Shown: piece after piece, positions 845 through 62,550 of the stretch
How the letters are laid out: each line of letters begins with the position of its first letter
Numbering within the stretch: the stretch's first letter is position 1
NCBI RefSeq assembly: GCF_035084215.1
Contig: NC_090328.1
Coordinates: 30,442,001 to 30,506,000 of the forward strand
Source: Heptranchias perlo
Taxonomy: Eukaryota
DNA length: 64,000 nucleotides
Direction: 5' to 3'
Made by a program: the position numbers and the translations under genes
The notes under the pieces: model-generated
What the model was told of the DNA's origin: nothing
Seen by the model: only the letters and a program-made list of their open reading frames with translations
Databases searched by the model: none

Positions 845-3235
845 ATCAGAAATTTATGGCACAGAAGGAGATCACTTGGCCCATTGTGTCGGTGCCAACT
901 GAAAAGAGTTAGCCCACTTTCCAGCACTTGGTCCATAGCCTTGTAGGTTATGGCACTTCAAGTGCATGTCTAAGTATTTTTTAAATGAGATGAGGGTTTC
1001 TGCCTCTACCACCCTTTCAGGCAGCAAGTTCCAGGCCCCCACCACCCTCTGGGTGAAAAAATTTCTCTTCCGCTCCTCTCTAATCCTTCTCTCAATTACT
1101 TTAAATCTATGCTGCCAGGTTATTGACCTCTCTGCTAAGGGAAATAGGTCCTTCCTATCCTCTCTATTTAGGCCCCTCATAATTTTATACACCTCAATTA
1201 AATCTCCCCAGCCTCCTCTGTTCCAAACAAAACAACCAATTTTTCCTCATAGCTAAAATTCTCCAGTTCTGGCAACATCCTCGTAAAACCCCTTTGTACC
1301 ATCTTTAGTACAATCACATCTTTCCTGTAATGTGGGGACCAGAGCTGTACGCAGTACTCTAGCTGCGGCCTAACTAGTGTTTTATACAGCTCTAGCATAA
1401 CCTCCCTGCTCTTACTTTCCTTTATTAGCTGAGGCATAGAATGTATCCCGTTTGGCTTAGCCACCTTATCTATCTGTCCTGCTACCTTCAGGGATTTGTG
1501 GACGTGCACTCCAAGGTCCCTCTGTTCCTCTACACCTCTCAGTATCCCCCATTTATTGTGTTTTCCCTTCCCTTTGTCCTCCCCAAATGCATCACCTCGC
1601 ACTTTGCTGGATTAAATTCCATTTGCCACCTTTCTGCCCACCTGACCTGTCCATTGATATCTTCCTGCAGTCTACAGCTTTCCTCCTCACTATCAAGCAC
1701 ACAGACAATTTTTGTATCATCTGCAAACTTCTTAAACATGTTCCCCCCCCCCGCCCCCACATTTAAGTCTAAATCATTATTATATACCACAAAAAGCAAG
1801 GGACCTAGTACTGAGCCCTGCGGGACCCCACTGGAAATAGCCATCCAGTCACAAAAGCACCCGTCAACCATTACCCATTGTTTCCTGCCACTGAGCTAAC
1901 TTTGGATCCAACTTGCCACTTTCCCTTGGATCCCATGGGCTTTTACTTTTCTGACTAGTCTGCCATGTGGGACCTTGTTAAAAACCTTGCTAAAATCCAT
2001 GCAGACTACATCAAATGCACTACCCTCATCGACCCTCCTTGTTACCTCCTCAAAAAATTAAATCAAATTAGTCAGACACGACCTTCCCTTAACAAATCCA
2101 TGCTGACTGTCCTTGATTAATCCGTGCCTTCCTAATAGCGATTAATAATGTCCATCAGAATTGTTTCCAATAGTTTGCCCACCACCGAGGTTAGGCTGAC
2201 TGGCCTGTAATTACTCGGTCTATCCCTTTCTCCCTTTTTAAACAACGTTAGCAGTCCTGCAATCCTCCAGCACCATGCCTGTAGCTAGAGAGAATTGTAA
2301 AATGATGGTCAGAGCCTCTGCTATTTCCTTCCTTGCTTCTCAACTGCCTGGGATGCATTTCGTCCGGCCCTGGCGACTTATCTACTTTCAAAGATGCTAA
2401 ACCCCTAAGTATTTCCTCCCTTCCTTTGTTTATCCCATCCGATATTTCACAGTCCTCCTCCTTAACTACAATGTCTGCATCGTCCCTCTCTTGTGAAGAT
2501 CGATGCAAAGTATTCATTAAGAACCATACCCACATCTTCTGTCTCCACATACAGGTTACTTTTTTGGTCTCAAAGGCCCTACTCTTTCCTTAGTTATCCT
2601 CTTGCTCTTTATGCATTTAGAAGACATCTTTGGGTTTTCCTTGATTTTACTTGCCAATATTTTTTCATGCCCTCTCTTTGCTTTCCTAATTTCCTTTTTA
2701 ATTTCACCCCTGCACTTTCTATACTCCTCTAGGCTTCCTGCAGTCTTGAGCTCTCAATATCTGATCATAAGATTCCCTTTTTTGCTTTATCCTATTCTGT
2801 GTGCTCCTTGACATCCAGGTGGCTGTAGATTTGGGAGACCCACCCTTTTTCTTTGTGGGAACATATTTGCTCTGAACCCTCACCATCTCCTCCTTGAATG
2901 CCTCCCACTGCTCTGATACTAATTTACCCTCAATTAGCTGTTTCCAGTTCACTTTTGCTAAATCACTTCAGCTTAGTAAAATTGGCCTTTTCTCCAATTG
3001 AGAACTTTACTCCTATCTTTGTCCTTTTCCATAACTATGCTAAATCTAACTGAATTCTGATCACTACCACCAAAATGCTCTTTCACCTGCCCAGCTTCAT
3101 TCCCTAAAACTAAGTCCAGAACTGCCCCCTCTCTTGTTGGGCTTGCCACATACTGGCTAAAAAAATGCTCCTGAATGCATTTTGAGAATTCTGTTCCCTT
3201 TATATCTTTTTACACTGATTCTATCCCAGTTAATA
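845..3235 (-). mobile_element. CR1 LINE, degenerate ORF2 (RT and 3' part)
   Basis: ORF fragments SGVPQGSVLGPLLF, KFADDTK, KSPGPD, LYKTLVRPQLEYCVQ; multiple frameshifts. Confidence 0.9.
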
Positions 3236-3340
3236 TTAAACTGAGGCCCTGTCTGCGCTCTCAGGTGGACGTAAAAGATCTCCTGGCACTATTTGAAGAA
3301 GAGCAGGGGAGTTCTCCCCGGTGTCCTGGCCAATATTTAT
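3236..3340 (+). mobile_element. Deu-domain SINE, 5' piece of a split copy
   Basis: AAACTGAGGCCCTGTCTG...GGTGTCCTGGCCAATATTTAT, colinear with the intact copy at 15880-16318. Confidence 0.8.
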
Positions 3341-4530
3341 AGGAACATAGGAACAGGAGTAGGCCCTCGTGCCTGCTCTGCCATTTGATAAGATCATGGC
3401 TGATCTGTGATCTAACTCCATATACCTGCCTTTGGTCCATATCCCTTAATACCTTTGGTTGCCAAAAAGCTATCTATCTCAGGTTTAAATTTAGCAATTG
3501 AGCTAGTATCAATTGCCGTTTGCGGAAGAAAGTTCCAAACTTCTACCACCCTTTGTGTGTAGAAATGTTTTCTAATCTCGCTCCTGAAAGGTCTGGCTCT
3601 AATTTTTAGACTGTGCCCCCTACTCCTAGAATCCCCAACCAGCGGAAATAGTTTCTCTCTATCCACCCTATCCGTTCCCCTTAATATCTTATAAACTTCG
3701 ATCAGATCACCCCTTAACCTTCAAAACTGCAGAGAATACAACCCCAATTTGTGTAATCTCTCCTCGTAACTTAACCCTTGAAGGCTGGGTATCATTCTAG
3801 TAAACCTACGCTGCACTCCCTCCAAGGCCAATATGTCCTTCTGAAGGTGCGGTGCCCAGAACTGCTCACCGTACTCCAGGTGCGGTCTAACCAGGGTTTT
3901 GTATAGCTGCAGCGTAACTTCTGCCCCCTTGTACTCCAGTCCTTTAGATATAAAGGCCAGCATTCCATTAGCCCTCTTGATTATTTTCCGCACCTGTTCA
4001 TGACACTTCAATGATCTATGTACCTGAACACCTCGGTCCCTTTGGACATCCACTGTTTTTAACTTTTTACCATTTAGAAAGTACCCTGTTCTATCCTTTT
4101 TTTGATCCAAAGTGGATGACCTCACATTTGTCTACATTGAATTCCATTTGCCACAGTTTTGCCCATTCACCTAATCTATCAATATTGTTTTTGTAATTTT
4201 ATGTTTTCATCTACTCTGCTTACAATGCCACCAATCTTTGTCATCAGCAAACTTAGATATGAGACTTTCTATGCCTTCATCTAAGTCGTTAATAAATATT
4301 GTGAATAATTGAGGCCCCAAGATAGATCCCTGCGGGACTCCACTAGTCACATCCTGCCAATGTGAGTACCTACCCATTATCCCTACTCTCTGTTGCCTTT
4401 CACTCAGCCAACTTCCTATCCAAGTCCGTATTTTTCCCTCTATTCCATGGGCTTCTATCTTAGCTAATATATCAAATGCCTTCTGGAAGTCCATATAAAT
4501 AACATACATTGACATTCCCCTGTCCACTAC
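3341..4530 (-). mobile_element. CR1 LINE 3' portion nested in the SINE
   Basis: [27 protein letters not shown]; tail repeat AGGAACAT at the left end. Confidence 0.9.
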
Positions 4531-4625
4531 TCAACCAACACCTAAAAATTATCACATTGCTGTTTGTGGGACCTTGCTGTGCACAACAGTGACTACGTTT
4601 CAAAAGTACTTCATGGGCTGTAAAT
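4531..4625 (+). mobile_element. Deu-domain SINE, 3' piece of the split copy
   Basis: TCAACCAAC...ATTGCTGTTTGTGGGACCTTGCTGTG...AAAAGTACTTCAT resumes where 3236-3340 stops. Confidence 0.75.
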
Positions 4626-4990
4626 CCCCTACTATTACTGCCCTATTCGTCTACATATCTTCTATCTCCCTCTGACTGTTTGGGGGTCTACGGTACATTC
4701 CCAGCAGTGTGATTACCCCTTTTTTGTTCTTTTAGCTCAACCCATATGGCCTCATTTGATGATCCTTCAAACATGTCATCTCTCCTCACAACTGTAATTA
4801 TTTGTTCAACCAATATTGCCAACCCCCTCCTTTTTTAACCCCCTTTCTATCTCGTCTGAAAACCCTGTAACCAGGAATGTTGAGCTGCCATTCCTACCCC
4901 TCTTTAAGCCATATTTCAGTAATAGCTATGATATCATACTTCCACGTGTCCATCTGTGCCCTTAGCTCATCTGCCCTATTCACTCGACTC
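4626..4990 (-). mobile_element. CR1 APE-endonuclease fragment
   Basis: Minus-strand translation gives DELRAQ..YDIIAITE.WL and RPPNS motifs. Confidence 0.75.
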
Positions 4991-5480
4991 AGTATTGACG
5001 TCACTATATACAACAGTTTTATTGTCGATTATATAAGCATTCCAGGTTGATTACTTTTTTAGTGCAAGTATAACTGTTCTGGAGATGTGCCTTAAGCATT
5101 AGTCACCCTTGTGGTGCTGCTACCTGTATTTCTTCAATAGCAAGGAGTAAGACATCCTGATGCAGTTAATTGTCTGCATGAATTTACACTACTGCATTCA
5201 GGAATGAGAGATGATGGGATATTTTTCTGCAGCCTGCAAAACAAGATGACAGTATACCATTCCTGAGTGCCAACTGTCATACAACACTGAAAACATCAAT
5301 GATAAATGGAGTTAAACTTTGAGCATATATTTTCTGAGGTTTTCCAGGCACATTTGCTACTTATTCATCCCAACGTAGTTTGGTTGTGATTACCAAATGA
5401 AAAGCTCAGTGTTTGTAATTGGAGTTGGATGTGTAACATCACACTTAATCTTTTTCAAAAGGATTATTAAATTAGTGTAT

Positions 5481-5757
5481 TCACTCCTGAGTCAGAAGGT
5501 GGTGAGTTCAAACCCCAATCCAGAGACAGCACGTATTCTAGACTGACACTTCAGTGCAGTACTGAGTACTGCATTGCCAGAGGTGTTGTCTTTTGGATGA
5601 GACGTTAAACTGAGGCCCCCGTCCACCCTTTGAGGTGGATGTAAAAGATATCGTACTATTCAAAGTTGCCAGTGGAGTTTTTCCAGTGCCCTGGCCTAGA
5701 TTATCCCTCAACCAACATCACTAAAATAGATTATCTAATTGTTTACCTCATTGCAAA
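5481..5757 (+). mobile_element. Deu-domain tRNA-derived SINE
   Basis: B-box GAGTTCAAACC; core GGATGAGACGTTAAACTGAGGCCCC. Confidence 0.8.
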
Positions 5758-6039
5758 ATAGTGCATTGTTATGTGGAGCACTGTTTAGAGGTCTCCCTGA
5801 TGTCTTTAGTGGTACATACCTTATCTGCTGTTAGATGACCAATAAAGAATACACACTAATATATATGTGCTGTACATAGTGAGGTGGAGGGGTTTGTTGC
5901 AAGAATTGTATGTCAGGGATGAAAGTATCTTTCTGTTCTTACTCTCCTTGCCTTTTACATTGTACATGTTAAAACCAAAACTTATCTCTTGTAAGTCTGT
6001 CAATTTAAAAATATTGGGAGAATTGCTGCTCTGGTTGCT

Positions 6040-11180: not shown

Positions 11181-12205
11181 AACTTAATAGTAGCAGGAGT
11201 AGGCCATAAGGCCCCTCGATCCTGCTCTGCCTTTAATAAAATCATGGCTGATCTTTGACCTCAATGCTGTTTTCCTGCCCGATCCCCATATCCCTTGATT
11301 TCCCCTAGAGTCCAAAAATCTATCTATCCCAGCCTTGAATATACTCAATAACTCGGCATCAACAGCCCTCTGGGGTAGAGAATTCCAAAGATTCACAACC
11401 CTCTGAATGAAGAAATTCCTCCTCATCTCAGTCTTAAATGGCCGACCCCTAATCCTGCAACTGTGCCCTCTAGTTCTAGACTCTCCAGCCAGGGGAAACA
11501 AACTCTCAGCATCTACCCTGTCAAGCTCCCTCGTAGTCTTGTGTTTCAATGTGATCACCTCTCATTCTTCTAAACTCCAGAGAGTATAGGCCCATTCTAT
11601 TCAACCTCTTCTCATAGGACAACCCTCTCATCCCAGGAATTAATCTAGTGAACTTCTGTTGCACCGCCTCTAAGGCAAGTATATGCCTCCTTAGATAAGG
11701 AGACAAAACTGTACCAGTACTCCATGTGAGATCTCACCAAAGCCCTGTACAATTGTAGTAAGACTTCCTTACTCTTGTAGTCCAACCCCCTTGCAATAAA
11801 GACCAACATGCCATTTGCTTTCCTAATTGCCTGCTGTACCTGCATGCTATCGTTTTGTGTTTCTTGTACCAGGACACTCAAATCTTTCTGGACACCAACA
11901 TTTAATAGTTTCTTATTTAAAAATATTCTGTTTTTCTATTCTTCCTATCAAAGTGAATAACCTCACATTTCCCCACATTATACTCCATTTGCCACCTTCT
12001 TGCCCACTCACTTAACCTGTCTTTTAACCCTTTGCAGACTTTGTCCTCCTCACTGCTTACTTTCCCACCTAGCTTTGTAGTGTCAACAAACTTGGATAAA
12101 TTACTCAGTTCCTTCATCCAAGTCATTAATATGGACTGTAAATAGCTGAGACCAAGCACCGAGCCTTGTGGCACCCCACGAGTTACAGCCTGCCAACCTG
12201 AAAAT
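11181..12205 (-). mobile_element. CR1 3' portion, tail-to-tail with the preceding copy
   Basis: PQGSVLG, WQMEYNVGKCEVIHF, RRNFFIQRVVNLWNSLP. Confidence 0.9.
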
Positions 12206-16756: not shown

Positions 16757-18177
16757 AAGAACATAAGAAATAAGAGCAGGAGTAGGCCATACGGCCCCTC
16801 GAGCCTACCCCGTCATTCAATCAGATCACGGCTGATCTTCAACCTCAACTCCACTTTCCCACCTGATTCATAAGAGTTCAAAAATCTATCTATCTCAGCC
16901 TTGAATATACTCAACGACTCAGCACCCACAGCCCTCGGGTAGAGAATTCCAAAGATTCGCAACCCTCTGAATGAAGAAATTCCTCCTCTTCTCAGTCTTA
17001 AATGGCTGACCCCTTATCCTGTGACTATGCCCTCTAGTTCTAAACTCTCCAGCCAGGGAAACAACCTCTCGGCATTTATCTTGTTAAGCCGTCTCGGAAT
17101 CTTATGTTTCAATGAGATCACCTCTCATTTTTCTAAACTCCAGGGAGTATAGGTCCATTTTACTCAACCTCTCCTCATAGGACAACCCTCTCATCCCAGG
17201 AATTAATCTAGTGAACCTCCATTACACCGCCTCTAAGGCAAGTATATGCTTCCTTAGATAAGGAGACCAAAACTGTACGCAGTACTCCAGGTGAGGTCTC
17301 ACCAAAGCCCTGTACAATTGTAGTAAGACTTCCTTACTCTTGTAGTCTAACCCCCTTGCAATAAAGACCAACATGCCATTTGCTTTCCTAATTGCCTGCT
17401 GTACCTGCATGCTAACTTTTTGTGTTTCTTGTACCAGGACACTCAAGTCTTTCTGGACACCAATATTTAATAGTTTCTCATCATTTAAAAAATATTCTGT
17501 TTTTCTATTCTTCCTATCAAAGTGAATAACCTCACATTTCCCCACATTATACTCCATTTGCCACCTTCTTGCCCACTCACTTAACCTGTCTATAAACCAT
17601 TTGCAGACTTTGTCCTCCTCACTGCTTATTTTCCCACCTAGCTATGTATCATCAGCAAACTTGGATAAATTACACTTGGTCCCTTCATCCAAGTCACTAA
17701 TCTAGATTGCAAATAGCTGAGGCCCAAGCACTGATCCTTGCAGTACCGCACTCGTTACAGCCTGCCAACTTGAAAATGACCCGTTTATCCCTACACTCTT
17801 TTCTGTTCGTTAACTCTCTCCATGCTAATATGTTACCCTCAACCCTGTGAGCCCTTATCTTGCATAACAGCCTTTTGTTTTGCACCTTATCGAATGCCTT
17901 TTAAAAATTCAAATATACTACATCCACTGGTTCCCCTTTACCTGCTAGTTACATCCTCAAAAAAACTCTAATAAATTTGTCAAACATTATTTCCCTTTCA
18001 TAAAACCATGTTGACTCTGCCTAATCATTTTGATATTCTAAGTGCCCTGTTACTACTTCCTTAATAATAGATTCCAGCGTTTTCCCGACGACTGACGTTA
18101 AGCTAACTGGCCTGTAGTTCCCTATTTTCTCTCTTCCCTCCTTTCTTGAACAGTGGATTACATTTGCTGCCTTCCAG
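16757..18177 (-). mobile_element. CR1 LINE 3' half
   Basis: AAGAACATAAGAA tail; MEYNVGKCEVIHF...LVRPHLEYCVQFWSP; NYRPVSLT near 18100. Confidence 0.9.
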
Positions 18178-43869: not shown

Positions 43870-46800
43870 TCTTGCATCCTGTCTAAGGCTAATTGTTTTC
43901 TTGTATCTCCTTTTTCTGCCTCCTTGTACCAATTCAAATAGCCCTGACTGATCCTCTGCATCCCTGAGCCTTTTTAATTTGAAAACCTGAGTTTTTTCTC
44001 CAATTAAAAGAATCCAAGTTCTTTGACTCTATCCTCATGTGTTTTATAGTTAGTTTAGTAGTTTTTCTCTGCTACATCCTTCTAATGTGGGTTCCAGCAT
44101 ATGTTCCAGGTGTGACCTGATCAGTGTTCTATACAATAGCAGGATTAATTCTTTTGATCTTATTATAGAACCTCAAATGCCATTTTTTTTGGCAGCAGCT
44201 AGGCACTGTCTTATATTTTGAGGTGTGTGTGTGTGTCGTCCGCAGATTGAGACTTAAAACATCTGACACAGGTCACAGGAAAATGTTGATAAATACAAGT
44301 CCCAACACACAGCTCTGTGGGGATCCACTTGTCACACTGTCCAACCCAAATACTTACCAGACACTACTTGATCTATCTTCACACGCTGTCACTGCACCAT
44401 GGCTACAAATTCTCTGAACTAATTTTATAAGACACCTTATCAAAAGCTTTACTAAAATCCAAGTATACCACATTCTCTTACTTACCTACATCTTTTGTTA
44501 CATTGCAGTGGCATTACTTGCCTTTTGTAAATCTCTGGCTCTTACCAATTAGTTTATATCTTCCTAAATCTTCTACTACCTTATCCTTGATGATTGATTC
44601 TAGAATTTTCACTGATTACAAATGTGAGGCTAACTTGTCTATGATTACATGGATCCCCCAGTTCCATTTTTAAATAAGAGCACTACATTTGCTATTCTCT
44701 TGCTCTGCTACTACCCTGTTTTCTAACTAATTGCTAAAGATTTCTGCTAGTACATCCATGAGTTCTCCAAGAACCCTAGGATGAATCCCATCCAGTCCAA
44801 GTTTATTTATATGGATCTTATTCAGTATTCAGCCAAAAACTCTGTAGTAATGTTAATTTTATGATACCTTAATCTAACTAGCTTGGAACATCCACTTGGC
44901 TATTTAGCCCTGTACTGTGCTTTACATAGAATCATTACAGTATCGCTATTGAGTCTCATTCCTCTGAACTTTTCCCATACCATTTTACATTTTTTTCCCA
45001 ATAGTTTTCTACTTTCTTTACAAAAGCTATTATGGATCCTGCTCCCACCACTTTTTTTGGGTATTCCATTCTCTTAAGAACCCTTTTTTTAGAAAAAAAA
45101 AGCACTTCTCCACCCTGGTATCTTTTTAATGAATCTCTGCTGCGCCATCTCCACGGCCTTGACATCTGCATAAAGTAGGGCTCCCAAAACTGAACACAAT
45201 ATTCCAAATGCTGCATCATCAAAGATTTGTATAGGTTTAGTATTACTTTGCTTTTGTATTTGATGCCCCATTATAAATCTAGCGTCCCACATGGTTGTTT
45301 TTTTTAAAAACAGCTGTATTAACTTATTCTCTCTTTAAGAAATCCCTATTTTCTCATTTAATATGGATCAGTAGAACTCAATTTTTCATCTGTCTGCATT
45401 TTCACTAATCTTGACACCCATTTCCTAAGCTAGACACTCCTGCATTTTTTTCCTTTCCCCAAAAATTGAAAAGTGTTGTAGTTTGTCTTGATTTCCCTAG
45501 CAATTCCAAGTTATTTTAGCAACTTTTTACACTATATAGATTTCCTTATATTGATGTTATCCACAATAGAGAATAATAAACTTGTAATATTTGAATGTCT
45601 TTGCTTTATTCTTAAAGTCCTTGTCTGCCATTTTGGCTGGTGGTCTTTATTCACTATTCTTCCTATTACTCCTAATTATACATTTCTGCAAATGCCCTTA
45701 AGTCTGTTCCAATTAGTTACCTCAGTGCCTCCTTTTTTTTCAGCCCTGTCCAATTCCCCTAAAATGTGTCTTCCTAAAGTTTATTGGTCTATTGCTACTG
45801 TTAATCTTTTTTTTTACCCTGAACCTCAGGACCCTGCAATCACACTCTCAACTATATCCTGCATTAACTCCTATTATGATGTCCCCAATGGTAAGCATTA
45901 GGTCAAGTACAGTCTCATTTCAAGTCCCTTCTATTGTTACATGTTGATTCATGCAGCAGCCCCTAACTACATTCAGAAATGCTGGATCTCTTTCCAGCAC
46001 TCTTTGATGTCCTGCCATTTATAAATTGCAATGACTCCACTGCTGCATTATATCACTTTTACACCATTTATGCTCTTCCAGCATCATAATCCCATTTGTG
46101 CTCTTCCTCCTCCCTCCACCTAACTAAATGTTCATTATACCTGATGTCCACAAATAGTCTATAAACCCTTACAATTCTAGCATTTGTGTACAACTTTATT
46201 CACTCATCTTTTAATTTATGTTTACTGTTTATCCTTTTGCCTTTTCTGTGATTTTTTTTTTTTTGATTAAGCATTGATTTCCTGTAGTATGGTGTACACT
46301 TGATTTTGTTGCGCCTTATCTAAACTTTCCTGGTTCTCTTGTACACATGTACTGGCTTCGTCCTCCAACTTCCTATTTGAAATATCCCTGTATCTTTTTC
46401 AGTCACTCTTCAAGTGACGCTCATCTGGTCAGTACAAGCTTTCTCTGGTCCAGAAGGCACTCTAGTCCCCTAGAAACCAACACCACACTCTTTGCCATGA
46501 GTTGATATCTTTTATCCTAGCCTGTCTCTGAAATACTAGTGATGCTACATGCTGGAGAAGAGAATGCTGCCTTGTCAGTCCTATCTTTTAAGCTTTCTCC
46601 AACCTTCCTGAAATTACTTTGAAGGACTACTGGACTACACCTGCCTATGTCACTGATTCCAACATGGACTACAATTGCTGCTTTTTGTCTCCCCCACTCC
46701 TTTAATAGATCATCAACCCTTGAGCTGAGATCAGTCACCCATGTATCTGGGAGACATCTGGCTGTTCTCATGCATACCTTCTAAGGGTGAACTCCCTGTT

Positions 46801-47867: not shown

Positions 47868-48637
47868 ATGGCGAGAAACTGGAAAGTACTGCAGTACAAA
47901 GGGATCTGGGGGTCCTAGTGCAAGAAAATCAAAAGGTTAGTATGCAGGTGCAGCAGGTGATCAAGAAGGCCAACGGAATGTTGGCTTTTATTGCTAGGGG
48001 GATAGAATATAAAAACAGGGAGGTATTGCTGCAGTTATATAAGGTATTGGTGAGACCGCACCTGGAATACTGCATACAGTTTTGGTGTCCATACTTAAGA
48101 AAAGGCATACTTGCTCTCGAGGCAGTACAAAGAAGGTTCACTTGGTTAATCCCGGGGATGAGGGGGCGGACATATGAGGAGAGGTTGAGTAGATTGGGAC
48201 TCTACTCATTGGAGTTCAGAAGAATGAGAGGCGATCTTATTGAAACATATAAGATTGTGAAGGGGCTAGATCGGGTGGATGCGGTAAGGATGTTCCCAAG
48301 GATGGGTGAAACTAGAACTAGGGGGCATAATCTTAGAATAAGGGGCTGCTCTTTCAAAACTGAGATGAGGAGAAACTTCTTCACTCAGGGGGTAGTAGGT
48401 CTGTGGAATTTGCTGCCCCAGGATGCTGTGGAAGCTACATCATTAAATAGATTTAAAACAGAAATAGACTGTTTCCTCGAAGTAAAAGGGAATTAGGGGT
48501 TACGGGGAGCGGGCAGGAAATTGGACATGAATTTAGATTTGAGGTTAGGATCAGATCAGCCATGATCTTATTGAATGGCGGAGCAGGCTCGAGGGGCCGA
48601 TTGGCCTACCCCTGCTCCTATTTCTTATGTTCTTATG
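47868..48637 (+). mobile_element. Young 5'-truncated CR1, same subfamily as 59189-62550
   Basis: Open frame of about 205 aa nearly identical to the C-terminus of ORF 59399-60406; TTCTTATG tail repeats. Confidence 0.93.
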
Positions 48638-51409: not shown

Positions 51410-53345
51410 TTTGTGAGTATGGGCATCGCCAGCAAGGCCAGTGTTTATTGCCCATCCCTATTAGCCCTGAGTAGGTGGTAGGCTCCTGCCTTGAATCACT
51501 GCAGTTTGTGTGGTGAAGGTGCTCCAACAATGCTGTTGGGTAGGGAGATCCAGGATTTTGACCCAGTAATGATGAAGGAAGGCAATATGTCCAAGTCTAG
51601 ATGGTGTATGACGTGGAGGGTGACTTGCCCTTCTAGATGGTAGAAGTCTGGGAGGTGCTGTCAAAGAAGCCTTGGAAAGTTGCTGGAGTGCATCCTGTAG
51701 ATAGTACACACTGCAGCCATGGTATGCTGGTGATGGTGGGGGTGGATTTTTAGGCTAGTGGATGAGGTGCCAATCAAGTGGACTGCTTTGTCTTGGATGG
51801 TGTTGAGCTTCTTGAGTGTTTATTGCAACTGCAACCAGGCAAGTGGAGCGTATTCCATCACACTGCTGACATGTGCCTTGTAGGTGGTGGATAGGCTTAG
51901 GGAGCCACTTGCCACAGAATACCCAACCTCTACCCTGCTCTAGTAGCTAATGGCATTTATGTGGCTGGTCCAGTTGAGTTTCTGGTCAGTGGTGACCCCC
52001 AGGATGTTGATGGTGGGAGACTCTGTAATGGCAATGCCATTGAATGTCAAGAGGAGGTGGTTGGGCTCTTGTTGGAGATGGTCATTGCCTGGCACTTTCT
52101 TGTGGCACGGACGTTACTTGCTGCTTATCAGAAGCCTGGATGTTGTCCATGTCTTGTTGCATGAAGGCATGGACTGCATCATCTGAGGAATTGCGAATGG
52201 AGCTGAACACTGCAGTCATCAGTAAACAGCCCCACTCTGACCTTATGATGGCAAGAAAGTCATTGATGAAGCAGCTGAAGATAATTGGGTCTCAGACGCT
52301 GCCCTGAGGAACTCCTGCAGCAATTTGCTGGAATGGAGATGATTGGCCTCCAACAATCTCAACCATCTTCCTTTGTGCCAGGTATGACTCCAGCCACTGG
52401 AGAGATTTCTCAATGATTCTTACTGACTTCAGATTAGTAGGTCTCCTTGGTGCCACACTTTGGTAATGCTGCTTTTTGTCAAGGGCAGTGTCTCATCACC
52501 TCTGGAATTCAGCTCTTGTGTCCATGTTTGGATGAAGGCTATAGTGCGGTAGAGTCAAGTGGTCCTGGCAGAACCCAAACTGAGCATCGGAGAGCAGGTT
52601 ATTTGAGTAAGTGCTGCTTGATAATGCTGTTGACAACTCCATCACTTCACTGATAATTGTGAGTAGGCTGATAGGGTGGTAATTGGCTAGATTGGATTTG
52701 TCCTGCTTTTGTGGACAGAACATACTTGGCAAATTTTGGCGGTTGGATGACCATGTTGTAGCTATACTGGAGCAGCTTAGCTTGGGGTGCCACTAGTTCT
52801 AGAGTTCAGGTCTTCATCACTACAGCCAGGATGTTGTTGGGGCATGTAGCCTTTGCTGTGTCCAGTGCACTCAGCTGTTTCTTGATGTAAGGTGGAGTGC
52901 ATCGACTTGGTTGAAGGCTGTGATGGTGGGGACCTCAGGAAGAAGCTGAGAAGGCCACTCGGCATTTCTGGCAGAAAACAATGGGAAGAGTGACATCACA
53001 GCCTCAAAACGAATCCTGTTCTCATTGATGTCCATTCTTGTCTTTTGCCCTTGCCTACTGGTCTCCGTCATTGTTGAGGATGTTCACGGAGCCTCTTCCT
53101 CCCATTAATTTCTTAATTGTCCACTATCATTAACGACTGGATGTGGCAGGGCTGCAGAGCTTTAACCTGATCTGTTGGTTGTGGGATCGTTTAGCTTTGT
53201 CTATAGCATGCTGCTTTTGCTGTTTAGCATGCATGTAGTCCTGTTGTAGTTTCACTAGGTTGGCACCTCATTTTCAGGTATGCTTGGTGCTGCTCCCGGT
53301 ATGCTCTTCTACACTCTCTACACTTATTGAACCAGGGTTGGTCAT
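51410..53345 (-). mobile_element. Second non-LTR family (CR1/L2-clade-like), degenerate ORF2
   Basis: KQDKSNLANYHPISLLTIISEVME, NLLSDAQFGF; its 3' tail differs from the main CR1 family. Confidence 0.8.
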
Positions 53346-57625: not shown

Positions 57626-59398
57626 TTTGAGATCCTCCAAAGGCAATAGGGCTGGGGTAAACACATGGTGAAGATCACTGGAAAAGCAGGTAGTGAGAGA
57701 ATACTCAAAACTCAGCTTTACTTGTCGCAATGAAGAACTTCTGTGTTCTGAAAAGTCTAAATGAGCAGCTATGGAATATTGTAATTCTGCCTGCTAGACT
57801 GAATAGAAAATTCATCTTGATCATAGATTTAGTATAATTGAAAGTCTAATGGGTTGGTTTAAAAACTAGTGGATTGAACTGGGTTGACTTGCTCTATACT
57901 GAAGCAGTTCTCTGCAGCATTGGGGTGATGTTGATGGGTTCATAGTCCTCTCCAAGGTAATGACCAGAGTAGCATCACAGAAGTTTGTGGCACTTAAGCC
58001 AGACCATTGTATTTGTGCCAAAATTATTTCCCGTAGGTGGAGTTTAATTCATAAGCTACTCTATTTTTGCTGTTGTGTTGGAGATATCGGGCTTTCTTTC
58101 AATTTGTCAAGGACGTACATGTCCTCTGATTCCTTTGTGAATTTAATTTTGTTTCTGACTATTTTGGGACAGGATGAATGATTGTGGGTTTAATCTGCTT
58201 ATTTTTGCCAACTTTTTGGATTTATGGCAATAGTTCAAAAACATAAATTGATAAATTGCCCAGCAACTTAGTACATCAGTATTTAAGGAAAAAAACACTG
58301 ACAGAACTTCACACAATTTTTAAAAATTGCCGTTAGCAACTCTACATCTTTGATGTACAGGATCTATCTCATTGAAAACATTTCCCCCTTTTTTGTTCAT
58401 CCACCTACAAAACCTGTTCATCGGGAATCTGGTTGGTTGGGTGACATGGACCGATCAGATCACTGAAAGAGGCAGTTTGACCAATGGGTGCCAAAGTCCT
58501 GTTAAGTCTGACTAGAAGTGACAAACTACCAAGTAGCTCCACAGTTTTAAGTGACAACTCATTGATCAGCCCTTCACTCTTCAACAGCATTTCTCTTTTT
58601 TTAAACTATGTAGTCCTCGCTTGATCTTTTGAAATGGTTCATTAGGAATTTTGCTGAAGTGGCACAAAGTATGCAAACGTAGTCTTAGGTATTGGTATAG
58701 GGATACAGAGAAAACAACGGGAAAGATCCTGTTGTGGGAATAGAGAGAGAGAGATAGAGACCTTATTGACAGGGGTGGTGAGTGTGGCCAATTCAGCTTG
58801 GGTGGAGAAAAAGGCTCCAGGGGAGGCTGCCCTGGTCCCAGATCCCACAAGTAAGAGAAGTGGCTGAAGCTGCGCACGTGGTCCTCCCCCTCTGCAAAAG
58901 GCAGTGTTTCTAATATAAGCAGCAGTGCTTGGTTTAGATCATTCTGTGGTCAGCTTTGTCTGTAATTGTTCCTCCCGCCCCGAGGTACTAAGCTGAATTT
59001 TGATTCAGGGCCGTGGCGCCCCGAAGATCACCTGGAAAGACTTGCTGCCCTTTTCCCACTGTCGCTGTGACAGCGGAGTCTCTCAAACAGCAAAAAAAAA
59101 TGTATCTTGTTCAGCGTGTCTGACACGTGCAGGAACCCATCACCATATTTTGAGTTTAAGTCAAGCCACTGAGCAATCTACACCCACCTATAAGAACATA
59201 AGAACATAAGAACATAAGAAATTGGAGCAGGAGTAGGCCAATCGGCCCCTCGAGCCTGCTCCGCCATTCAATAAGATCATGGCTGATCTGATCCCAACCA
59301 CAAATCTAAAGAACACAAGAAGTCGGAGCAGGACCCGGCCACATAGCCCCTGGGCCCTCTCCGCCACCCACAGGGCATTGACCGATCCGAACTCAGCT

Positions 59399-62340
59399 TC
59401 ATGTCCAATTTCCTGCCCGCTCCCCATAACCCCTAATTCCCTTTACTTCTAGGAAACTGTCTATTTCTGTTTTAAATTTATCTAATGATGTAGCTTCCAC
59501 AGCTTCCTGGGGCAGCAAATTCCACAGACCTACCACCCTCTGAGTGAAGAAGTTTCTCCTCATCTCAGTTTTGAAAGAGCAGCCCCTTATTCTAAGATTA
59601 TGCCCCCTAGTTCTAGTTTCACCCATCTTTGGGAACATCCTTACTGCATCCACCCGATCAAGACCCTTCACAATCTTATATGTTTCAATAAGATCGCCTC
59701 TCATTCTTCTGAACTCCAATGAGTAGAGTCCCAATCTACTCAACCTCTCCTCATGTGTCCGCCCCCTCATCCCCGGGATTAACCGAGTGAACCTTCTTTG
59801 TACTGCCTCGAGAGCAAGTATGTCTTTTCTTAAGTATGGAGACCAAAACTGTATGCAGTATTCCAGGTGCGGTCTCACCAATACCTTATATAACTGCAGC
59901 AATACCTCCTTGTTTTTATATTCTATCCCCCTAGCAATAAAAGCCAACATTCCGTTGGCTTTCTTGATCACCTGCTGCACCTGCATACCAACTTTTTGAT
60001 TTTCTTGCACTAGGACCCCCAGATCCCTTTGTACTGCAGTACTTTCCAGTCTCTCGCCATTAAGAAAATAACTTGCTCTCTGATTTTTCCTGCCAAAGTG
60101 CATAACCTCACATTTTCCAATATTATATTGCATCTGCCAAATCTCTGCCCACTCACCCAGCCTGTCTATATCCCCTTGCAGGTTTTTTATGTCCTCCTCA
60201 CTCTCTACTTTCCCTCCCATCTTTGTATCATCTGCAAATTTTGATATGTTGCACTCGGTCCCCTCCTCCAAATCGTTAATATAGATTGTAAAGAGTTGGG
60301 GACCCAGCACCGACCCCTGTGGAACACCACTGGTTACTAGTTGCCAGTCCGAAAATGAACCATTTATCCCAACTCTCTGCTTCCTGTTCGATAACCAATC
60401 CTCCACCCATGCCAGAATATTACCCCCATCCCGTGATTTTTTATCTTAAGTAATAATCTTTTATGTGGCACCTTGTCGAATGCCTTCTGGAAGTCTAAAT
60501 ACACTACATCCACTGGTTCCCCTTTATCCACCCTATACGTTATATCCTCGAAGAACTCAAGCAAATTTGTCAGACATGACTTCCCCTTCATAAAGCCATG
60601 CTGACTTTGTCCTATTAAATTATGCTTATCTAAATGTTCCGTTACTGTCTCCTTAATAATAGACTCCAAAATGTTACCCACCACAGATGTTAAGCTAACT
60701 GGCCTATAATTTCCAGCCTTCTGCCTACTACCCTTTTTAAATAACGGTGTTACATTAGCAGTTTTCCAATCTGCCGGGACCTCTCCTGAGTCCAGGGAAT
60801 TTTGGAAAACTATCACCAAAGCATCCACAATCCCTACTGCCACTTCCCTCAAGACCCTAGGATGGAAGCCATCAGGTCCAGGGGATTTATCCGCCTTGAG
60901 TCCCATTATTTTACTGAGTACCATCTCCTGAGTGATTTTAATCGTATTTAGCTCCTCCCCCCCGAGAGTCCCCTGTTTGTCCAGTGTTGGGATATTCTTA
61001 GTGTCCTCTACCGTAAAGACTGAAACAAAATATTTGTTCAGCATTTTTGCCATCTCCATGTTTCCCACCATTAATTTCCCGGTCTCATCTTCTAAGGGAC
61101 CTATGTTTGCCTTAGCCACCCTTTTTCTTTTTATATAACTATAGAAACTCTTGCTATCTGTTTTTATATTTTTTGCTAATTTCTTTTCATAATCTAACTT
61201 CCCTTTCTTAATCAATCCTTTAGTTACTTTTTGCTGTCTTTTGAAGAATTCCCAATCTTCTATCCTCCCACTAAGTTTGGCTACCTTATATGTCCTTGTT
61301 TTTAGTCGGATACTATCCTTGATTTCTTTACTTAGCCACGGGTGGCTGTCATTTCTTTTACACCCTTTTTTCCTCAGTGGAATATATTTATTTTGAAAGT
61401 TGTAAAATAACTCCCTAAATGAACACCACTGCTCATGTACCGTCTTACCCTTTAATCTATTTTCCCAGTCCACTTTAATCAATTCCGCTCTCATACCATC
61501 ATAGTCTCCTTTATTCAAGCTCAGTACGCTTGTTTGAGAATCAACCTTCTCACCCTCTAATTGGATATGGAATTCAACCATGTTGTGGTCGCTCGTTCCA
61601 AGGGGATCCTTAACTAGGACATTATTAATTAATCCTGACTCATTACACAGGACCAGGTCCAAGGTTGCCTGCCCCCTTGTAGGATCAGTTACATACTGCT
61701 CAAGAAATCCATCCCTGATGCACTCAATGAACTCGTCCTCAAGGCTGCTCTGCCCAATTTGATTTGTCCAGTTAATATGATAATTAAAATCCCCCATAAT
61801 TATGGCTGTTCCCTTATTACATGCCCCGACTATTTCCTGATTAATACTTCTTCCAGCAGAGTTGCAACTATTAGGAGGCCTATATACTACGCCCACTAAT
61901 GTTTTTTTTCCCTTATTATTCCTTATCTCCACCCAAACTGTTTCATTATCTTGATGCTTTGTCCCAAAATCATTTCTCTGTATTACAGTGATTCCTTCCT
62001 TTATTAACATAGCCACCCCACCTCCCCTTCCTTCCTGCCTGTCCTTCCTGATTGTTAAATACCCTGGCATATTTAATTCCCAGTCGTTGTCACCCTGCAG
62101 CCATGTTTCTGTAATGGCCACAAGATCATACCCATACGTAGTTATTTGTGCCGTTAACTCGTCCATTTTATTACGAATGCTACGTGCATTCAGATAAAGA
62201 ACTTTCAAATCTGTTTTGTGACGCTTAGTTCCTGCTTTTTCCTTTTTTAACACTTTACCTATTACTCCATACCTTCTGTCCCTTCCTGTTACGCTTTCCT
62301 CTCTCTCCCTGCTCAGGTTCCCAACCCCCTGCCACTTTAG
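59399..62340 (-). CDS. CR1 ORF2, APE endonuclease plus reverse transcriptase, interrupted by one 1-nt frameshift near 60423-60427
   Basis: YLNARS, ITETWL, YRPP, MGDFN, LDL, SDH; KSPGPDG, NYRPVSL, YLDFQKAFDKV, GVPQGSVLGP, FADD. No stops apart from the frame switch. Confidence 0.9.
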
Positions 62341-62550
62341 TTTAAACCCTCCCCAACAGCACTAGCAAACACTCCTCCTAGGACAGCGGTCCCGGCCCTG
62401 CCCAGGTGCAGACCATCCGGTTTGTACTGGTCCCACCTCCCCCAGAACCGTTTCCAGTGTCCCAGGAATTTGAATCCCTCCCCCTTGCACCATTCCTCTA
62501 GCCACGTATTCATTTGAAATATCCTCCTATTTCTACTCTGACTAGCACGT
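62337..62550 (-). CDS. CR1 ORF1 C-terminal SGNH/GDSL esterase fragment
   Basis: NTWLEEWCKGEGFKFLGHW...KPDGLHLGRAG (DxxH block), ends GEGLN*. Confidence 0.88.

Follow-up and report, generated by a model that had tools for sequence, protein, structure and literature searches.

Comparative evidence for a probable programmed -1 ribosomal frameshift between ORF1 and ORF2 of vertebrate CR1 retrotransposons

The translation of ORF2 in LINE retrotransposons has been called an open question in a review (PMC3894237, in extract), and the worked cases are reinitiation. In this study, the question was raised by a CR1 copy on the minus strand of a 64,000-nucleotide window of the Heptranchias perlo genome (NC_090328.1, 30,442,001 to 30,506,000; positions below are those of this window), in which ORF1 ends GAG GGT TTA AAC TAA, exactly as an earlier note on this DNA had read it. 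CR1 is the dominant retrotransposon group in most vertebrates (PMC13343379). The comparisons described here suggest, with a probability that we put at roughly 0.85, that ORF2 is made by programmed -1 ribosomal frameshifting at U_UUA_AAC, as an ORF1-ORF2 fusion.

The features of the copy are collected in Table 1. An SGNH esterase ORF1 and an ORF2 with APE endonuclease and reverse transcriptase domains were found, and the assignment to CR1 was based on these domains, on the 3' tandem repeat and on a junction that by eye closely resembles the published ScyCan_CR1-1a consensus. The copy was 99.4% identical to the one at locus L325 over 3,350 nt compared, with one gap, which splits its reverse transcriptase coding into two frames near 60430. 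Over a 401 nt stretch, 39 other scored copies (811 candidates) were 100% identical, which indicated that the family, F1, is very young. The full-length F1 ORF1 encodes 316 aa with an SGNH esterase domain by Pfam (PF13472), and it matched the solved ZfL2-1 ORF1 esterase (4C1B, E 1.6e-31); its top named matches were shark and ray proteins. The Pfam endonuclease match begins at the Asn of YLNARS, upstream of the first Met of ORF2. The ORF2 N-terminus gave no match against the PDB as a single sequence, and the profile of a three-sequence N-terminal alignment matched the L1 endonuclease, ExoIII and TRAS1 endonuclease structures, with the alignment to the L1 endonuclease running from residue 13 onward. 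Further CR1 fragments of different ages lie on the minus strand at 913-4990, 16759-18150, 11187-12205, 47868-48637 and 51511-51881, and an old esterase ORF1 remnant at 46411-46768 (minus strand) is too decayed for its junction to be read. The L325 locus itself holds a full-length F1 copy between oppositely oriented pieces of the same family (166-1161 and 5081-5999).

Table 1. Features of the CR1 copy and of its ORF1/ORF2 junction (window positions).
Feature	Position	Strand	Basis
CR1 LINE copy, 5'-truncated, very young family (F1)	59202..62550	-	similarity to other copies
ORF1 3' remnant, end of SGNH esterase domain, C-terminus AVGEGLN-stop	62337..62550	-	ORF reading
TAG 8 codons before the first -1 codon, closing that frame	62362..62364	-	sequence
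G_GGU_UUA overlapping heptamer, not conserved	62343..62349	-	sequence and cluster comparison
U_UUA_AAC slippery heptamer in ORF1 phase, conserved	62340..62346	-	sequence and cross-lineage comparison
ORF1 stop directly 3' of the heptamer; TAA here, TAA/TAG/TGA by lineage	62337..62339	-	sequence
-1 frame linker, 50 codons, no stop, no AUG, LKWQGVG...LKVLYL	62191..62340	-	sequence
G-run +11 to +15 (conserved) and second G-run +18 to +20, candidate stimulator	62320..62329	-	lineage alignment
APE endonuclease domain, starting at Asn of YLNARS (AAT 62190-62188)	61585..62190	-	PF03372 residues 51-252
First in-frame ATG of ORF2, 8 codons past the Asn motif	62164..62166	-	sequence
Reverse transcriptase and ORF2 C-terminus	59399..60732	-	RVT_1 in two ORFs
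3' UTR and terminal short tandem repeat	59190..59398	-	read from sequence; likeness to other copies stops at 59202

The layout that the earlier note had described at the junction was found as described. Two overlapping X_XXY_YYZ heptamers are present in the right phase, the -1 frame is that of ORF2 and runs open from 62361 to 60364 (665 aa), a TAG closes this frame just upstream of the heptamers, and the first AUG comes after the endonuclease Asn motif. The CUG at 62316 and the GUG at 62253 are likewise in the -1 frame, and no AUG, CUG, GUG, ACG or UUG lies between the closing TAG and the first -1 codon. Strict XXXYYYZ heptamers are common, however, with 889 in 128 kb (both strands of the window), so that a single site means little and cross-lineage conservation carries the case. 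In that comparison the two heptamers parted: U_UUA_AAC was conserved, whereas G_GGU_UUA was specific to the family, the codon before the leucine being GGT, GCT, ACT, TAT, TGT, AGT or TCG depending on the cluster.

Conservation was examined genome-wide with an anchor on the esterase motif DGLHLNxxG, a pattern that leaves out both the heptamer and the window's own family. It gave 9,704 matches against 6 for the reversed control. Leu/Phe-Asn codons stood at the expected distance from 6,023 of the 9,704 anchors, and the remaining 3,681 lacked Leu-Asn codons at the exact register. Among the 6,023 other-family junctions, 5,391 carried TTTAAAC, and the reversed-pattern controls carried none. In a sample of the first 100 anchors on contig C1, the exact site followed by TA or TG was found at 78, one mismatch at 14, two at 4 and no site at 4; hence 92 had at most one mismatch. 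Moreover, 202 open junctions (some loci fetched twice), anchored without the heptamer, were clustered at 85% identity into 31 clusters, of which 26 ended in Leu-Asn-stop and the other five were single decayed copies. The Leu-Asn-stop clusters used TTA in 26 of 26 cases, AAC in 25 of 26 and a preceding T in 25 of 26, although these clusters are mostly related shark subfamilies of one genome and the counts overstate their independence. In the same clusters, the two leucines of DGLHL, taken as a control, use six codons each. The earlier note had named conservation of the heptamer at synonymous sites as a test, and it held. Furthermore, in about 8,700 contigs from four other organisms covering 62310-62385, variants occurred only at 62347, 62349, 62350 and 62355, with none in the heptamer, the stop or the G-run, under an 80% likeness filter that favours close relatives. 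These sequence data indicate that the site is constrained at the DNA level, not only at the protein level.

The signal also extends far beyond sharks. The note had suggested that amniote CR1 ORF1 also ends in LN, and this ending proved to be conserved in the amniote homologs. Altogether, 85 of 120 ORF1 homologs end in LN, and they span sharks, rays, a mormyrid fish (teleost), coelacanth, frogs, turtles, lizards and a snake. The 35 homologs without this ending are in many cases partial or frameshifted, with a few real alternatives (QGN, FFR). The homologs P0098 and P0108 end in QGN, which could be coded by G_GGA_AAC, another classic slippery heptamer. Three database proteins read across the junction as G/D-F-K-L, which is the -1 translation of the heptamer bases; a search for natural in-frame fusions gave one match among 726 candidates, a ray gene model across the junction, which is uninformative. 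In the supplement of the 2026 CR1 survey (PMC13343379), searched over roughly the first 400 characters per consensus, the heptamer gave 23 matches, of which 17 were CR1 ORF1 ends by eye, one was uncertain and five were unrelated. The 17 consensuses carry 11 species codes, read as alligator, crocodile, bearded dragon, bullfrog, coelacanth, bowfin and five cartilaginous fishes. A heptamer-blind search of the same part of the supplement found the site in 5 of 5 CR1 rows, and two unrelated L2 rows were also returned. Taken as a sequence signal, the junction is deeply conserved from sharks to reptiles.

Several observations accompany this survey. The sequence TTTAAACTA also occurs in the 5' UTR of SquAca_CR1-18 and SquAca_CR1-3, followed by a short G-run (searched part of the PMC13343379 supplement). 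The 43 pattern matches in viral contigs included no relative. CR1 ORF1 sequence was also met in public proteins that bear names of host or bacterial genes (P0007, P0025, P0082, P0084, P0117 and P0122; the names include ribosomal protein S24, hydroxyacid oxidase 2 and a Pseudomonas hydrolase), and these are likely artefacts of gene models or contamination.

The -1 register of ORF2 relative to ORF1 that had been claimed for this copy was recovered in the other families, although their linker lengths are unrelated. Among 102 distinct junctions, 73 were in the -1 frame, and among the 66 with a stop-free linker the number was 60; the rest were mostly old copies with indels. The modal distances from the stop to the Asn motif, in the four families with enough copies, were 134, 149, 173 and 206 nt, all of which place ORF2 in the -1 frame, and all five foreign-host loci that reach the endonuclease were in this frame as well. 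A stop in the -1 frame lies 4-41 codons upstream of the heptamer in 11 lineages, the interval holding no AUG, and neither a stop-start overlap of the SART1 type nor an AUG adjoining the ORF1 stop was present. No AUG occurred from the stop to the Asn motif in six of these lineages, and in the other five the linker AUG lay at least 15 codons from the ORF1 stop. In F1, F2 and F3, the reading frame runs 8, 98 and 186 codons beyond the Asn, respectively, before an AUG is reached; both F1 and F2 are very young, and copies of F2 show a median pairwise difference of 0.7%. The three largest families examined are without a usable AUG for ORF2. In Zorro3, the endonuclease mutation N17A cuts retrotransposition to about 2% (PMC1965478, in extract), and N17 would be the equivalent of the Asn of the CR1 endonuclease.

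What might stimulate a shift at this site was examined by folding and by alignment. The CAGG/CCTG hairpin that had been suggested can indeed pair, but its -6.5 kcal/mol did not stand out from shuffled sequence (z -0.07; 93 of 200 shuffles as good), and as a stimulator it failed in the other families, which share no hairpin. In most of the 18 lineages folded, z was near 0. Folding against shuffles and a partner-strand search found no classical hairpin or pseudoknot 5-9 nt downstream, and no common long-range partner of the G-run was found within full elements, either in 13 lineages or by duplex scan. Since -1 frameshifting usually requires a stimulator, the absence of a conserved hairpin counts against the frameshift reading. 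What is conserved downstream is a run of G: positions +11 to +15 were G in 20, 20, 20, 18 and 20 of 21 lineage representatives, and two of these five are wobble positions in the -1 frame; +4 to +10, by comparison, vary. GGGG began at +11 or +12 in 16 of the 21, against 0.8% per position elsewhere, and the G4Hunter score of the region was seldom reached downstream in the same loci. With ViennaRNA, a quadruplex was predicted in 13 of the 18 folded lineages, often of two tiers only, and was absent in five. The G-run starts 10 nt past the heptamer, beyond the common spacer of 5-9 nt and near 11-14 nt, the values given for usual -1 sites and for the arterivirus and cardiovirus cases, respectively, in the Atkins 2016 review (PMC5009743, in extract). 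The same extract counts U_UUA_AAC as one of the heptamers on which mammalian ribosomes shift most readily, and natural quadruplex stimulators were anticipated there, with none then known. The lack of a hairpin or partner, the conserved G-run and the spacers of the review together leave a quadruplex, a bound protein or the stop codon itself as candidates. The stimulator is likely to be the neighbouring stop together with the G-run at +11, which would work either as a quadruplex or as a linear site for a bound protein; this is the least certain part of the proposal.

The absence of a structural stimulator at the junction also speaks for a different route, AUG-independent termination-reinitiation of the kind proposed for human L1. 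Ribosomes would then restart in the -1 frame near the end of ORF1 and make a separate ORF2p, and the bases that are conserved would serve to signal the restart. For SART1 and L1, ORF2 is reported to be translated by reinitiation or AUG-independent initiation (PMC2881922 and PMC5009743, in extract), and in CR1 the stop overlaps the nearly invariant first -1 codon, CUA. However, this explanation accounts neither for an exact X_XXY_YYZ heptamer in the phase of ORF1 nor for the constant -1 register, and the CR1 junction has no stop-start overlap such as the UAAUG of SART1; we consider it unlikely. A start within the linker, at a near-cognate codon such as the CUG at 62316 or the GUG at 62253 or at a lineage-specific AUG, reached by leaky scanning or internal entry, is a still weaker prospect. 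Suitable codons do exist, since ten of the 11 linkers contain CUG, GUG, ACG or UUG and five contain AUG, but their positions are unshared between lineages and the linker of L063 holds neither an AUG nor a near-cognate codon. Moreover, the frame is kept free of stops as far back as the heptamer, and the strongest constraint falls on bases upstream of the candidate codons.

A change at the RNA level could bring ORF2 into frame without any recoding by the ribosome, either by splicing into AG|G at +10/+11 or by polymerase slippage that adds one base. Several families do show ACTAA with CAG|G about 9 nt further on, which resembles a branch point with its acceptor; on the other hand, there is no pyrimidine tract, A stands at +10 in only 12 of 21 representatives, the T3/A3 runs are short for such slippage, and contigs from 8 runs, which may be DNA, showed no indel or joint at the site. 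We regard this as very improbable. No more weight is given to the idea that Leu-Asn is kept for the sake of the ORF1 protein, with codon choice and frame as inherited accidents. An alignment of 43 ORF1 proteins, a set picked from LN-ending ones, shows no variation at L315 and N316, yet the synonymous sites vary no more than the amino acids do, and more distant esterase ORF1s have other endings. In the AlphaFold model, Leu-Asn falls past the last predicted helix (297-312), in the last block with pLDDT 72, which is a weak argument against a purely structural reason. The residue before the Leu varies widely but avoids amino acids without an NNT codon, which account for 1 of 45 there and for 36 of 90 at the two positions before it, although the control is soft, as positions -6 and -7 are also low.

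Programmed -1 frameshifting is therefore preferred among these explanations. The heptamer stands in the phase of the upstream ORF, the -1 ORF is open from the site, and synonymous sites are conserved; the sequence tests named beforehand for this claim, namely the heptamer at synonymous sites, the -1 register and the LN ending, all came out in its favour. Under the proposed mechanism, most ribosomes would terminate after ...GLN, giving the free 316-aa ORF1p. A minority would slip, with tRNA-Leu and tRNA-Asn re-pairing from UUA/AAC to UUU/AAA, and would read ...GLN-LKWQG through the linker into the endonuclease and reverse transcriptase. By arithmetic from the coordinates, the fusion would have about 316 + 980 residues, that is, some 1,300 aa, and slippage would fix an excess of ORF1p over the fusion, as for Gag and Gag-Pol. 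No protease domain was found in CR1 by Pfam, so the fusion may stay uncut. If this mechanism is true, the real start of CR1 ORF2p moves, and engineered constructs or annotations starting from the first AUG would cut into the endonuclease; CR1 would also provide a very large natural set of frameshift sites without a classical stimulator. A signal of seven bases, open to mutation, makes CR1 ORF2 translation directly testable.

Retroviral gag-pol and coronavirus 1a/1b have the same arrangement, with X_XXY_YYZ at the end of the upstream ORF and the polymerase in the -1 frame, and U_UUA_AAC is the frameshift site of IBV (PMC5009743, in extract). Unlike these, CR1 is a cellular non-LTR retrotransposon in which a G-run at +11 was found instead of a hairpin or pseudoknot. 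In PRRSV, the stimulatory element is a linear C-rich motif, whereas the CR1 motif is G-rich and a binding protein for CR1 is only a candidate idea. PRRSV (nsp1-beta with PCBP) and the cardioviruses share the long spacer of 11-14 nt, and PRRSV is protein-stimulated (PMC5009743, in extract). Among LINEs, the APE-type elements TRE5-A and TRE3-A of Dictyostelium need a -1 frameshift for ORF2 according to a review figure legend (PMC5911963); these are other LINEs of an amoeba, whereas the signal in CR1 is one defined heptamer, preserved across vertebrates. Human L1 and silkworm SART1 also have bicistronic RNAs in which ORF2 depends on ORF1 translation (PMC2881922, in extract), but they give a separate ORF2p by reinitiation, whereas in CR1 the frames overlap at -1, a slippery site is present and an AUG is often missing. 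For Paramecium LINE groups 1-3, consensus sequences led to the suggestion that the ORF1/ORF2 junction is recoded (PMC5405496, in extract), by a +1 shift, reinitiation or readthrough, in contrast to the -1 heptamer of CR1. No literature proposal of CR1 frameshifting was found in a search outside which the original 1997-2005 CR1 papers and the Repbase/Dfam notes fall, and an earlier passing proposal in those papers or in Repbase notes is possible. The word 'frameshift' is absent from the text and the searched part of the supplement of the 2026 survey (PMC13343379).

More distant relatives were sought in metagenomes, where 80 loci were collected, 13 of which stop short of the junction and 67 of which reach it. 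TTAAAC with a stop ends 8 of the 67, one as G_UUA_AAC, and two more junctions carry the TTAAAC site shifted or with one change; the three compared lineages that keep the site have 27-42% esterase identity to the shark families. One natural variant of the site is found at L064:668-690, in a distant lineage where G_UUA_AAC is followed by TAG and a G-run is present, with ORF2 in the -1 frame.

A wider reading, which we offer tentatively and consider rather doubtful as a whole, would be that the polymerase of the dominant LINE of vertebrates is a Gag-Pol-like fusion made through a signal as old as jawed vertebrates, that the stimulator is a G-quadruplex or a protein (perhaps ORF1p) on the linear G-run, and that distant relatives fuse by UGA-C readthrough, recoding being the rule for LINEs with an esterase ORF1. 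If true, it would supply the natural use of a quadruplex-type stimulator that was anticipated in the 2016 review (PMC5009743, in extract). 

As regards the distant relatives, TGA followed by C ends 33 of the 67 metagenome junctions that are reached. In 25 metagenome loci, ORF2 was called in frame 0; 22 of these have TGA, and in 21 of the 22, which are related loci and not independent, it is TGA-C, against a background of 21% for C after TGA. The junction sequences suggest that more distant esterase-ORF1 LINEs may use stop-codon readthrough as a second route to an ORF1-ORF2 fusion. The in-frame TGA loci are L061, L070, L072, L075, many of L085-L128, L138 and L140.
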